Part shown: in pieces, positions 1,266 to 43,839 of the stretch | Numbering within the stretch: position 1 is the first letter of the stretch | How the letters are laid out: the number at the start of each line of letters is the position of its first letter | From: Desulfosudaceae bacterium | GTDB taxonomy: Bacteria > Desulfobacterota > Desulfobacteria > Desulfobacterales > Desulfosudaceae | Length of the DNA stretch: 64,000 nucleotides | Direction of reading: 5' to 3' | Assembly (NCBI GenBank): GCA_963674745.2 | Contig: CAXXDV010000003.1 | Coordinates: 2,592,001 to 2,656,000, forward strand | Program-made: the position numbers and the translations under genes | Notes under the pieces: model-generated | Databases searched by the model: none | What the model was told of the DNA's origin: nothing | What the model saw: the letters and a program-made list of their open reading frames with translations, nothing else

Positions 1266-1727
1266 CTAGTTATCGTTAATCACCTGTGTAAATGTAATCT
1301 CTAAATATGACTCAGAGGCCCCATGCATCATAAGGATTGATTTAACTTCTGCATCTTTTAATAGGCCTGAATCAAAAGGGCCTTCTACCCGCCACCAAGC
1401 GGGGTCAGCCTCCGAGTTATCCTGTAAGAATCTGTTGGATGGATTATCATACGGCTTCAAACCAAGCTTATTCACTAAACGAATAACGGCATCTTTATTT
1501 AATATGAATGCATACGTCACGGCACTACTATTCGATGACTTGTTCACATGAACAACGTTCGAGATGGGCAGCCCGTTATTTTCTAACAACATATCGATTT
1601 TCCGAACAAATTCTTCGTGACTATTACATGAGAACAGTATAGTACAAAAAATAAGCATCAAAGCGATTGCAAATGAGCTTATTCTTATATAGCCCCGACC
1701 AGCCACAGAATATTTTATCCCATACAT
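1266..1727 (-). CDS. AT-rich hypothetical lipoprotein (ORFan-like)
   Basis: Track ORF 1266..1847 begins inside the IS end; likely true start is ATG 1727 (MYGIKYS...). Hydrophobic stretch followed by lipobox-like LFSC. Confidence 0.6.
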   Translation of the reverse strand: MYGIKYSVAGRGYIRISSFAIALMLIFCTILFSCNSHEEFVRKIDMLLENNGLPISNVVHVNKSSNSSAVTYAFILNKDAVIRLVNKLGLKPYDNPSNRFLQDNSEADPAWWRVEGPFDSGLLKDAEVKSILMMHGASESYLEITFTQVINDN

Positions 1728-1855
1728 TGAATTTATGTTTAGCATGTCCTGCGCCATAACACCTAAAACTTTAACACCCTGATATGATTGACAGTTGTCA
1801 AATGGAAAATAGTTCTCCTGCCAGTTTTTAATCTGGTCTCCTTGCATTTATGAAA

Positions 1856-2051
1856 TTCCAGGGTACCCGGAGGGGCGGAACCTTTAATGCGACGGTTGTT
1901 CACTCTGATATACGCGGGTTGGATACCGCATGACTTTTCTTCGTCGCGGAGCTGCCTCTGTCTAAAATCTGGAGTTAGGCCGAAAGGCTTATCCTATAGG
2001 GTGTCCGAGGGTTCTCCTTTCCGTGGCTGCGCCCCCGCGGCTGCCCTGGAA
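1856..2051 (-). ncRNA. Putative IS110 bridge/seek RNA in the 3' non-coding end
   Basis: Outer stem ttccaggg (1856-1863) / ccctggaa (2044-2051). Two internal-loop hairpins carry segments matching the target (acacccta, agattttag) and the donor junction (atatcaga). Confidence 0.75.
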
Positions 2052-2120
2052 TATGATGTTGTAAATGGTCTATCGAACCTCCTGTTGATCATGTTTTTGT
2101 ATTTTGCCTTTTGATTGGCT

Positions 2121-3236
2121 CTAATTTGTCAAAGATGCTTCGGATTCAATGGCGATTGCCCAGATAAAACCGCAAAGTTCCCGGGCGATAGCGGTTATAA
2201 TGACCTGCTTGGTTTTTCCTTTGGCCCAAAAATGCCGGTAGCGTCCACAGAGTCTTAATTGTGCTTTCCAGGAAATATCACGGATGCTTTGCGGTAATCC
2301 TTCCTGTTTCTTCAGTAATGCTCGAGTAACCCGTGCTCTGTGCCGGTACGACCAGGCCGCTTCAACCAGTATGCGGCGCACATGCGAATTACCGGTTTTG
2401 GTGATCGGGCCGCGCTTGATATTTTCGCCGGTGGAATATTCTGATGGCACCAGGCCAAGATAGCTCATCAGTTGATCCGGGTGGTCAAAACGATTAAAAC
2501 TTCCGATCTCCACGGTGATTATAGCGGCAGCGAGTAACGAGATGCCGCGCAGGCTCTGGAGCGCTTGAACGACAGGAAACATCCGCCATTGCGGTATGAG
2601 CTGATGTATCTGCTCGGTGAGCCGCTGAACACGCAGGCTGCAATGATCCAGATGGTCGACATATTCTTGCAGGACAATTTGCTGGGACTCATGGGGCATT
2701 TTGATATCGGCAATCCAGCGCCGATGAGCCTGGGTCCACGGCGTACGTCCGGTATACGTAAAACCGCTACGCAGCAGAAAAGCCGACAATCGCTGCTTGC
2801 AACGTTTTTCATCCTGCTTGATATCACTACGCGCTCTGACCAGGTCTCGCAAGGCCTCGTCTTCGGCAAGGGGAACATGAACGGAAGTCAAGTCGCCGGA
2901 TCGATGCAAACGCGCCAGCATAAGAGAATCGCGCCGGTCATTTTTAATCCGGTTCCCGCTCTGCTTGGGAATCAGCGAAGGCGCTACCACCTTACAGTCA
3001 AAACCCTTGGCAGTAAGATGACGATAGATCTGATAACCGCAGGGACCGGCCTCATACACAAAATGCAGATCGGCATTTTTACTGACCATCTTACGTGTCA
3101 CCTTGTCCAGTGCCGCCAATGTTCCATCGATTTGACCATAGTGTACAACTTCACCATTACACCCGCCTTGGGCGATGGAAATATCAATACTTTTTTTGTG
3201 GACATCCATACCGATAAATATGCTATTCTTCTTCAT
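2121..3236 (-). CDS. IS110 family transposase/recombinase (DEDD RuvC-like plus Tnp serine domain)
   Basis: Motifs GMDVHK, YEAGPCG, KNDRRD, YLGLVPSEYSTG, GNSHVRRILVEAAW. Confidence 0.97.
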   Translation of the reverse strand: MKKNSIFIGMDVHKKSIDISIAQGGCNGEVVHYGQIDGTLAALDKVTRKMVSKNADLHFVYEAGPCGYQIYRHLTAKGFDCKVVAPSLIPKQSGNRIKNDRRDSLMLARLHRSGDLTSVHVPLAEDEALRDLVRARSDIKQDEKRCKQRLSAFLLRSGFTYTGRTPWTQAHRRWIADIKMPHESQQIVLQEYVDHLDHCSLRVQRLTEQIHQLIPQWRMFPVVQALQSLRGISLLAAAIITVEIGSFNRFDHPDQLMSYLGLVPSEYSTGENIKRGPITKTGNSHVRRILVEAAWSYRHRARVTRALLKKQEGLPQSIRDISWKAQLRLCGRYRHFWAKGKTKQVIITAIARELCGFIWAIAIESEASLTN

Positions 3237-3322
3237 GACCTGCCTCCTTGGTATTGGCTCTGTGCCAGGTTAATGTAGGTTGACCTTTAGCATAACCCAC
3301 GTTTGCAAGGATGGCAGGTCAT
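3235..3322 (-). promoter_or_regulatory. Hairpin occluding the transposase RBS and start
   Basis: 3235-3250 (atgacctgcctccttg) is complementary to 3306-3322 (caaggatggcaggtcat) with one bulge; covers AAGGAGG and part of the ATG. Confidence 0.65.
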
Positions 3323-3406
3323 TTCCTTCTATTTTAACTGTCAATCATTATGTCTAAAACCTTTAATGCCTCTGCCGCACATCCCCCCAGATCTAACCTA
3401 CACCCT

Positions 3407-3542
3407 CATAATCACTTAACCACTTAATCACCTAAGCACCTAAAGCTTCTAAGCGGCACTTTCACTTATCGGCTTGGTTCTGCGCTATGCCCCGGTTGGA
3501 CGTTTAAAACCCTAAAACCTAAAACTCTAAAACTTTAAAACC
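3407..3542 (-). repeat. Two degenerate 8-bp arrays, inverted relative to 1181-1260, separated by a ~50-nt motif
   Basis: TAA recurs every ~8 nt at 3409-3452 and 3505-3538 (cttaacca/cttaatca/cctaaaac units). Confidence 0.85.
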
Positions 3543-3641
3543 TTCGTATAATTATGAGTTGTACTATACCATCGTTCTGTTAAAATACAACATTCGACCA
3601 CGTTCAATCAATTGCGAGACGAAGCCGTCAAAGGAGATAAA

Positions 3642-4385
3642 ATGAAAATAGCCGCCATCATTCCCTCACGCTACGAATCCACCCGTTTCCCGGGAAAACC
3701 CCTGGCGCCGATTGCCGGCACCCCCCTGATCCAGCACGTTTACAATCGTGTCCGCCAGGCCCCTTGCATCACGGACGTCGCCGTGGCCACGGACGACCAG
3801 CGTATTTATGACGCGGTGATGGGTTTCGGCGGGGATTGCGTGATGACCCGGGACAAATGCCGCACCGGAACGGACAGAGTCGCGGAAGCCGCCCGGTTAA
3901 TGGGGCTGGAACCCGGTGACATCGTCGTTAACGTTCAGGGGGACCAGCCGCTGATCGCGGCGGAGACCATCGAACAGACCGTCGCCCCGCTGCTTTCTCC
4001 GGTTGATTTCGGCGTATCCACCCCGCTTCTTGCCATCGATGATGAAACAACGATCAACAGCACCAAAAACGTCAAAGCGGTTTTTGACAGCGGGGGGTTC
4101 GCACTTTATTTCTCAAGGGCACCGATTCCTTATGCCCGCGATCCCGAAACGCCCGCCCGGATTTACAAGCATCTGGGTGTCTATGCTTTTGCCATCGGTT
4201 TTCTGGGCCTGTTTGCCAGCCTGCCGTCGGGGAAACTGGAAGAAATTGAAAAACTGGAGCAGTTAAGAGTGCTGGAGTATGGATACAAAATCAAGGTCGT
4301 CATTACCGAACATGATTCACCGTCCGTTGATCTTCCCGAAGATATCGAGTATATCGAGTCGCTCATGGCCGCCGGTCAGGAGTGA
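3642..4385 (+). CDS. kdsB: 3-deoxy-manno-octulosonate cytidylyltransferase (CMP-KDO synthetase)
   Basis: IPSRYESTRFPGKPLA, TGTDRVAEA, NVQGDQP, ALYFSRAPIP, LEEIEKLEQLRVLE; AGGAG RBS before ATG 3642. Confidence 0.96.
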   Translation: MKIAAIIPSRYESTRFPGKPLAPIAGTPLIQHVYNRVRQAPCITDVAVATDDQRIYDAVMGFGGDCVMTRDKCRTGTDRVAEAARLMGLEPGDIVVNVQGDQPLIAAETIEQTVAPLLSPVDFGVSTPLLAIDDETTINSTKNVKAVFDSGGFALYFSRAPIPYARDPETPARIYKHLGVYAFAIGFLGLFASLPSGKLEEIEKLEQLRVLEYGYKIKVVITEHDSPSVDLPEDIEYIESLMAAGQE

Positions 4386-27246: not shown

Positions 27247-27266
27247 AACATTTTCGATCGACCGGA

Positions 27267-27322
27267 GAACCCAGAACCCAGAACCCAGAACCTCGAACCC
27301 CGAACCCCGAACCCCGAACCTA
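27267..27322 (+). repeat. 7-bp tandem array GAACCYN x8
   Basis: gaaccca x3, gaacctc, gaacccc x3, gaaccta. Confidence 0.9.
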
Positions 27323-36984: not shown

Positions 36985-37142
36985 GTAGGGGCAGGCCCCT
37001 GTGCCTGCCCGGGAAAGGGCAACCACAGGGGGTTGCCCCTACGAACCGGGGTAGACGTTTATGGGTGCCACGGGGCGACCGAGGTTGCCCCTACGAACCG
37101 GGGTAGACGTTTATGGGTGCCACGGGGCGACCGAGGTTGCCC
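36985..37142. repeat. Cluster of GTAG-type REPs including a perfect 52-bp tandem duplication
   Basis: gtaggggcaggcccctgtgcctgccc (36985-37010), inverted gggcaaccacagggggttgcccctac (37017-37042); 37031-37082 identical to 37083-37134. Confidence 0.88.
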
Positions 37143-37210
37143 GTGATTGGTCAAAAGCACGGAGAGTACGGGCAAGCTGCCGCCCTTGGCCCCCCTCAAA
37201 CCCCGTCCCC

Positions 37211-37312
37211 TTAATCACTTAATCACCTGACCACTTAATCACCTGGGCATCTAACCACCGGATCATCTAAAACAAAAACGCTAAAACCTTGAAACTTTAA
37301 CACCTAAAACTT
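37211..37312 (-). repeat. Degenerate 8-bp array (CA-rich on + strand)
   Basis: ttaatcac ttaatcac ctgaccac ttaatcac ... ctaaaacc ttgaaact ttaacacc taaaact. Confidence 0.8.
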
Positions 37313-43579: not shown

Positions 43580-43839
43580 TTAGGGTTGCAAAGTTTTAGG
43601 TTTTAATGCTACGTGTTACATGCCACGTCAGTAGATTTAACGTATTTATGTGATTAGGTGATTAAGTGATTAAGGTTTAGGTTCTGGGCATGCAGGCCAT
43701 CCGCAAATGTTGTAGGGGCGGCACTCTTTTCATACTTTATTCCGGTTCACGTTCTGCTACGCTTCACTGCCCGGAAAGACGAGTAGGATAACCACTTAAG
43801 CACCTAAACACTTAAACACATAATCATCTAAATCCCTAC
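43580..43839. repeat. Inward-facing degenerate 8-bp arrays enclosing a REP stub and a conserved motif
   Basis: GT-rich units 43580-43690 (gtgattag/gtgattaa), CA-rich units 43789-43832 (cttaagca/cctaaaca); cgcaaatgttgtaggggc at 43702. Confidence 0.8.

Follow-up and report, generated by a model that had tools for sequence, protein, structure and literature searches.

A 64,000-nt stretch of the genome of a Desulfosudaceae bacterium (hereafter the window, in whose positions coordinates are given unless another locus or contig is named) carries an insertion sequence (IS) that interrupts an intergenic array of degenerate 8-bp repeats. Here we demonstrate the anatomy of this element, the conservation of an RNA structure at its 3′ end, the covariation of short guides within that RNA with insertion flanks, and the distribution of matching sites in a census of the host genome. 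RNA-guided target choice by IS110 and IS1111 elements was established in 2024 (PMC11187229; PMC11208160), and the mechanism as it is known is also described in PMC13626964. Our reading, to which we assign a probability of roughly 0.88, is that this intact IS1111 element picks its insertion site through a bridge/seek-type RNA from its own 3′ end, which recognizes an 11-bp target in the intergenic octamer arrays. Homologous loci are designated by L-numbers and genomes by G-numbers, with G000 denoting the host.

Anatomy of the element and its two insertion sites

The body of the element spans 1573 bp on the minus strand (1781–3353), with its left end (LE) at 3353 and its right end (RE) at 1781, and its termini (ACATAATG... 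and ...CATATC) are kept in homologues. Both junctions, read directly, bear the core dinucleotide CT (AG in element orientation), at 1779–1780 on the RE side and at 3354–3355 on the LE side; the presence of the same short core at each junction, with no longer duplication, is characteristic of site-specific insertion. The transposase (recombinase) gene (2121–3236, minus strand) encodes a 371-aa protein with matches to the Pfam domains DEDD_Tnp_IS110 (PF01548; E value 1.7e-17, 64.1 bits against a cut-off of 29) and Transposase_20 (PF02371; 3.7e-21, 75.7 bits against a cut-off of 21.3), the domain pair of IS110-family transposases, and it distantly matches the solved structures of ISCro4 (4.1e-10) and IS621 (4.5e-07, residues 195–294). 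Its C-terminal domain contains the motif GL-P----(S/T)G in the form GLVPSEYSTG, within ...YLGLVPSEYSTGEN..., as read by eye with no alignment to reference proteins. Subterminal inverted repeats of 12 bp, TGATTGACAGTT in the RE arm (1786–1797) and its reverse complement AACTGTCAATCA in the LE arm (3336–3347; both given on the + strand), lie 5–6 bp inward of the element ends, are kept in homologues, and fall within the 7–17 bp given for IS1111 elements. The non-coding sequence 3′ of the transposase gene (340 nt, 1781–2120) is longer than that on its 5′ side (117 nt, 3237–3353), as is typical of IS1111 elements. Because these Pfam domains, the subterminal repeats, the long 3′ non-coding end, and the GL-P motif are the defining features of the group, we assign the element to the IS1111 group of the IS110 family, of which it is an intact member.

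The element occurs exactly twice in the host genome (5.55 Mb in three contigs), with 100% identity between the copies over 1577 bp. This identity points to recent movement, and the element has probably been active recently. On the + strand, both copies read ...TTAACACC-CT on one side and CT-AAAAC... on the other, and at both the core is bordered by the same target half-sites within the host octamer array, ACACC (1774–1778, + strand) and AAAA (3356–3359, + strand). A first-pass annotation of the window, made from the letters alone, had described an IS1111-type element bounded by these CT dinucleotides, and all of its coordinates stood on re-reading. It had further proposed that removal of the element at the CT core restores a continuous array; an uninterrupted site nearly identical to the joined flanks of copy 1 exists at C3:2307396 of G000, and its single CT supports the proposed boundaries and the 2-bp core. 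That annotation's case would have been weakened by copies of identical RNA at unrelated sequences, and we found the second, identical copy in the same ACACC-CT-AAAA.

If the two copies had arisen by a segmental duplication carrying the element together with its flanks, their shared target would be uninformative about specificity. The complete identity of the copies and the likeness of one flank over ~26 bp of array sequence are what such an event would leave, but outside the array units neither flank is related between the copies, and on the right the similarity ends 5 bp after the core. The neighboring genes differ as well (kdsB and guaA at one copy, tRNA-Lys at the other), which identifies the copies as separate insertions, and we consider duplication extremely unlikely.

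The surroundings of the two copies have features of their own. The second copy (locus L002) lies ~190 bp from a tRNA-Lys (CTT) gene (L002 3272–3348), with a terminator-like hairpin in between. At the window copy, a 193-aa open reading frame (ORF) on the minus strand (1266–1847) starts inside the RE and runs into a flanking gene without a Pfam match; this ORF is probably an artefact in which a host gene, with the insertion in its upstream region, appears extended.

A conserved two-loop RNA at the 3′ end

The 3′ non-coding end contains a structured, 196-nt RNA of bridge/seek type (1856–2051, minus strand), in which an outer stem encloses two internal-loop hairpins, as judged from its fold, a consensus structure, and a covariance-model match of 219.6 bits. 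Hairpin 1 (1948–2017, minus strand), with the target-binding loop, comprises the helices GGAG/CUCC and CCUC/GAGG (the latter at 2010–2007 / 1958–1955), an internal loop of 12 x 12 nt, and a distal stem. Hairpin 2 (1889–1947, minus strand), with the donor-binding loop, comprises the helices GCGACG/CGUCGC (1947–1942 / 1894–1889) and GCGG/CCGC. A 3′ RNA with one target loop and one donor loop had been proposed in the first-pass annotation, and this two-internal-loop fold is indeed the minimum-free-energy structure (−99.3 kcal/mol, z −4.46), with 0 of 100 shuffles equally stable.

Conservation of the structure was assessed in a set of 79 homologous loci (43–81% protein identity), mostly from Desulfobacterota genomes. 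In an alignment of 26 homologous 3′ ends the scaffold is conserved and the loop bases vary, and 13 pairs of the consensus fold derived from it show compensatory changes. When the distal stem is included, 18 of 48 pairs are changed on both sides, a covariation score that 0 of 500 shuffles attain, and pairing is present in 90.9% of alignment cells, compared with at most 50.7% for slid partners. In the structure used for this 48-pair test and for the covariance model, helix 6 was one column out of register, for which reason it is only 49% paired there and the model is slightly weakened; the correct helix 6 pairs, as they stand in the consensus fold, are invariant in 25–26 of the 26 sequences.

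Searched with a covariance model built from this alignment, 70 of the 79 loci have the RNA 3′ of the transposase gene in sense orientation. Of the nine loci without a match, most are truncated at contig ends, and 34 antisense matches are weak echoes. The host genome also encodes four further IS110-family transposases (C1:2189387-2190241, C3:1612671-1613525, C3:2335150-2336010, and C3:1846139-1846999 of G000) of two other types, with 30% and 24% identity to the transposase studied here; when one locus per type (L005 and L007) was searched with the RNA model, neither gave a match. An Rfam scan of both strands of 1500–3700, with E values up to 1, matched 0 families. A promoter and terminator scan of 1600–3700 returned two promoter-like sites and one terminator-like site, which is no excess over shuffles; none was placed to define the ends of the RNA, and no terminator-like site fell in the 3′ end of the element.

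Loop bases covary with insertion flanks

Two short segments in the loop of hairpin 1 correspond to the target. On the 5′ strand of the loop, ACACC (2004–2000) and the core CU (1999–1998) form a right-target guide (1998–2004, minus strand) that pairs with AG-GGTGT on the top strand in element orientation, and on the 3′ strand UUUU (1967–1964) and the core AG (1963–1962) form a left-target guide (1962–1967, minus strand) identical to the top-strand left flank plus core. Judged by these complementarities, the guides specify ACACC-CT-AAA(A) on the + strand of the window. Within this RNA the segment that matches the top strand precedes, in the 5′ to 3′ direction, the one that matches the bottom strand, which is also the order described for IS1111 seekRNAs (PMC11187229). 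That target-loop guides fit the insertion flanks had been claimed in the first-pass annotation and holds for both genomic copies, and the three minus-strand segments it named were placed correctly (ACACCCUA at 2004–1997, AGAUUUUAG at 1970–1962, and AUAUCAGA at 1911–1904). It over-called the length of the target guides, because the last base of ACACCCUA (A) and the first three of AGAUUUUAG (AGA) belong to the scaffold and match flanks at the background rate; only ACACC plus CU and UUU(U) plus AG occupy positions that covary with the flanks.

The same annotation had suggested testing guide segments against insertion flanks across homologues, and in our count the two track each other. Element ends were defined from conserved terminal motifs, and loop bases were compared with the adjoining flanks. 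Across 37 distinct right junctions, the reverse complement of positions 3–7 of the hairpin-1 5′ loop strand matches right-flank positions +1 to +5 in 33, 34, 35, 35, and 28 cases, and the next positions match +6 and +7 in 8 and 2. Across 32 left junctions, the 3′ loop strand matches left-flank positions −1 to −3 in 30, 28, and 27 cases, −4 in 14, and −5 to −7 in 7, 8, and 6. The match thus drops to background past +5 on the right and past −4 on the left. Cognate guides and flanks match on average at 4.46 of 5 positions on the right, compared with 1.86 for non-cognate combinations, and at 3.09 of 4 compared with 1.43 on the left; 0 of 20000 permutations attain either cognate total. By manual count from the listing, the 37 right junctions carry 22 distinct right guides.

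Core bases also differ among homologues. A gamma-proteobacterial group (L052–L061), judged by eye, follows a variant of the guide-flank rule: the right-target guide has the core UU and the right junction reads AA instead of AG, as it also does in L063 and L067, while the left-target guide, the left junction, and the RE-donor guide of the gamma group all have AG. To judge from these bases, the group looks like a natural case of unequal cores within one RNA.

Hairpin 2 corresponds to the element itself, clearly at the RE and only in part at the LE. Its 3′ loop strand carries the RE donor-end guide AUAUC plus AG (1905–1911, minus strand), identical to the RE end plus core (CATATC-AG). AUAUCAG and the RE end are jointly invariant across the main clade, and the donor guide shifts in step with the RE end in L076 (AUGAAAG with CATGAAAG) and L077 (AUGGAAG with CATGGAAG); in an alpha-proteobacterial group the two agree at 6/7 positions. 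A weak candidate for the LE donor-end guide, AAGUC (1932–1936, minus strand), may pair with G-AC.T of the LE, and by our own reading pairing of this kind extends to 5/7 positions in the clade consensus and 5/5 in the alpha group. In the computed circle junction, TTGACA from the RE (1796–1801, minus strand) is followed after 18 nt by CATAAT from the LE (3347–3352, minus strand); these putative −35 and −10 halves could form a junction promoter, from which the transposase gene would be transcribed only once the element is excised.

By analogy with the family, these features would work together through a circular intermediate, transcription from the junction promoter, an RNA-protein complex, and strand exchange. 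ACACC-CU on the 5′ loop strand of hairpin 1 would pair with one target strand and UUUU-AG on the 3′ loop strand with the other, the two overlapping at the 2-bp core. In hairpin 2, AUAUC-AG would recognize the RE end and core of the circularized element, and the 5′ strand, which matches the LE in part, would recognize the other end. Strand exchange at the core by the DEDD recombinase would follow and leave a CT on either side of the inserted element.

Several observations weigh against guidance by this RNA. The host genome has only two copies of the element, and the LE donor guide pairs at only 4/7 positions here by our own reading, in keeping with the first-pass view of this match as weak. When the 340-nt non-coding end was shuffled by mononucleotides, a core-spanning match of 8 nt to the 24-nt empty site arose in 143 of 2000 shuffles; a single-sequence match is therefore not significant, and support for the guides comes from covariation across the family. 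Because the sites counted there are related to one another and a genome may contribute several copies, the permutation figures imply more independence than there is. Poor right-side fits were kept in the count (L024 at 2/5, the upstream L027 copy at 1/5, and L016, L043, and L028 at 3/5 each). Twelve loci were excluded before it (L009, L020, L052, L055, L056, L058–L061, L063, L066, and L067), L020 for a mutated end and the other eleven because the end pattern failed or a false upstream LE end was picked. By eye, L063 and L067 fit at 3/5 positions, L009 does not fit, and L066 fits only at a 2-nt offset; L052, L055, and L058 fit at 5/5 with a UU core. L064, which was retained in the set but entered neither count as no end was found, fits at 3/5.

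Public sequencing data give the RNA no support either. In three metatranscriptome runs and one DNA run, all environmental and all compared as contigs, one RNA-library contig spans 1855–2032 with six differences and many span 1889–1976, but the DNA run gives the same pile-up on the scaffold, and the RNA-library contigs therefore do not indicate expression. The contigs of these four runs showed neither a circle-junction joint nor an empty-site joint.

The target might instead be chosen by the protein, through the DNA sequence or the structure of the array, with the 3′ structure serving as a terminator, stability element, or transposase regulator. The insignificance of the single-sequence match accords with this proposal, as does the likeness of the occupied sites over ~26 bp on one side, which extends beyond the reach of the guides. 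Flank bases nevertheless covary with specific loop positions where the protein scaffold is still 57–74% identical, and between L052 and L058 one guide base differs and the matching flank base differs with it. The scan described above speaks against a terminator in particular, and experiments have found four IS1111 members to be RNA-dependent (PMC11187229). We regard recognition by the protein as very unlikely and retain RNA guidance as the explanation of target choice.

Other features of these RNAs and ends were noted in passing. The 12 nt at 1879–1890, which run from the last part of hairpin 2 across the linker into the beginning of the outer stem, recur exactly in the flank of copy 1 at 3358–3369, 3 bp past the core. 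A third guide at this position was ruled out as a general feature, as copy 2 has no such match; the linkers of homologues bear no likeness to their flanks by eye, with no formal test, and the identity is probably due to chance or to an array-end motif. At L027, two element copies stand in tandem ~90 bp apart (1926–2121 and 3681–3876) with near-identical left flanks, and the poor fit of the upstream copy's right flank to its guide (1/5) suggests rearrangement rather than guided insertion. An extra insert of ~120 nt that includes a long hairpin is present in the LE, upstream of the gene, in most close relatives (L018–L040 and most of those at 67–81% identity) and absent from the window element and L029.

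Octamer arrays as the target context

Arrays of period 8 are abundant in this genome: Tandem Repeats Finder reports 348, compared with 75 of period 7 and 160 of period 9, and merging periods 8, 16, and 24 yields 357 regions totaling 15.8 kb. ORFs of 150 aa or more cover ~86% of the genome, yet only 38 of the 357 regions fall mainly within them. The units are degenerate (for example CCTAAAAC, CTTAATCA, TTAACCAC, and ACATAACC), and within the window such arrays occur at 1183–1263, 3409–3443, 3505–3542, 37210–37270, 43646–43674, and 43788–43823. Our literature search found no description of octamer arrays in Desulfobacter-like genomes. Other repeats in the window are a period-7 array of AGAACCC (7.9 copies, 27266–27320) and a perfect 52-bp tandem repeat (2.2 copies, 100% matches, 37031–37142) that adjoins period-7 and period-8 arrays.

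Besides the two occupied sites, the exact 11-mer occurs at five sites in the genome, against an expectation from base composition of 2.5 per genome, and 7/7 of the exact sites lie in octamer arrays. Allowing one mismatch in the 10-mer with the core kept gives 186 sites, 68 of them in or near arrays; 49 of these 68 are AAACC-CT-AAA, the commonest near-cognate junction, and this element occupies 0 of them. In this genome the 11-bp site is confined to points where two particular octamer units meet, and for this reason the element lands in intergenic tandem arrays. The claim in the first-pass annotation that the guides are programmed for the octamer family thus holds insofar as every exact site is in an array; by their sequence, the guides address one junction of two unit variants and not the octamer family as such.

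For comparison, a sister element is available from a genome of the same genus. It is found at AAACC-CT in three of four visible junctions, two of them in arrays, and at TTACC-CT in the fourth. Its RNA was sought in that genome (G011, 71% complete) and was not assembled there. Flank periodicity was examined for array targeting as a general habit of the relatives, and most 48-nt flanks are at background; the right flanks of L027, L044, L047, and L072 are periodic (0.51–0.71, compared with a background 95th percentile of 0.46). Separately, L027 is inserted in a GGTTCAG-type heptamer array of another genome.

These results bear on whether the link to the arrays is incidental, that is, whether guidance by RNA is real but an 11-bp specificity merely happens to occur in arrays, with no dedicated safe harbor and neither partner shaped by the other. 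We rate this a substantial possibility, somewhat short of even odds. Exact sites number just seven among 357 period-8 regions, most homologous elements lie outside tandem arrays by flank periodicity, and every relative has its own target. Set against this, all seven exact sites are in arrays even though the arrays with 16-bp margins make up only ~27 kb of 5.5 Mb, the junction most often occupied by the sister element is the host genome's commonest array junction (49 sites), and repeat targeting recurs in the family, at repetitive extragenic palindromic (REP) sequences, attC sites, and Tn21 ends (PMC11187229; reference list of PMC11208160). The earlier idea of the arrays as a multicopy harbor holds at most in part: they do lie mostly outside long ORFs, but the harbor is small, with exact sites in few of the arrays.

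A more ambitious reading, which we think improbable but worth stating, is that guides in this lineage have been retuned to follow a fast-evolving octamer satellite (ACACC-CT here, AAACC-CT in the sister element), so that IS and satellite co-evolve and the arrays serve as dedicated landing sites. In that case the clade as a whole would amount to a natural series of reprogrammed guides, written in a minimal code of 3–4 bases, a 2-base core, and 5 bases and including members with different cores in the two target guides (UU and AG), which would imply tolerated core heterology.

RNA-guided target choice of the kind we favor for this element is an already known mechanism, and the element is a new addition to the bridge/seek-RNA class with an unusual target context. 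Like the IS1111 seekRNA elements ISEc11, ISPa11, ISKpn4, and ISPst6 described by Siddiquee et al. in 2024 (PMC11187229), it has a DEDD transposase with GL-P----(S/T)G, subterminal repeats, and a long non-coding stretch following the gene; it favors sequences that are repeated in the host or in mobile elements; and its RNA has two short segments that match opposite target strands, overlap at the crossover, and have the top-strand match 5′. It differs from them in that its target is a junction in degenerate 8-bp tandem arrays and not a REP sequence, attC site, or transposon end; its transposase has 371 aa, compared with the 330–350 aa stated for IS1111 transposases; and its RNA, known from sequence alone, is modeled as a 196-nt unit with a long outer stem, in contrast to the experimentally mapped short seekRNAs of 82–96 nt (all PMC11187229).

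Likeness to the IS110-group bridge RNA of IS621 (Durrant et al. 2024, PMC11208160; Hiraizumi et al. 2024, 2026) extends to the two-loop RNA with target and donor internal loops, to the reading of both strands around a 2-bp core by each loop (tentatively so for the LE side of the donor loop), and to the recombinase, a distant homologue of the solved IS621 protein. Bridge RNAs have been predicted in the RE of 93% of IS1111 elements (PMC11208160). Unlike the IS621 RNA as described there, ours lies 3′ rather than 5′ of the gene, its loop carries the left and right guides in the opposite order, the core reads AG in element orientation, and the covarying left guide is only 3–4 nt; it also has no Rfam family match. 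The REP-targeting IS110-family elements ISPpu9 and ISPpu10 of Pseudomonas putida likewise insert in a multicopy intergenic host repeat, but their targets are palindromic REP sequences or one conserved intergenic sequence, not short tandem arrays. A literature search for IS110-family targets in tandem repeats found none among the titles and abstracts covered; two preprints use the words "tandem repeat" in their body text.

The finding adds no new mechanism, and its value is that of a well-resolved natural example. The target type, a junction within short tandem arrays, is one for which our literature search found no prior description, and the abundance of 8-bp intergenic arrays is a notable feature of this genome in its own right. 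For a Desulfobacterota-centered clade of IS1111 elements, the analysis provides a defined two-loop RNA together with a position-by-position map of its programmable loop bases (5 + 2 + 3–4), and the ~22 natural guide variants could aid the design of IS1111-type recombinases.

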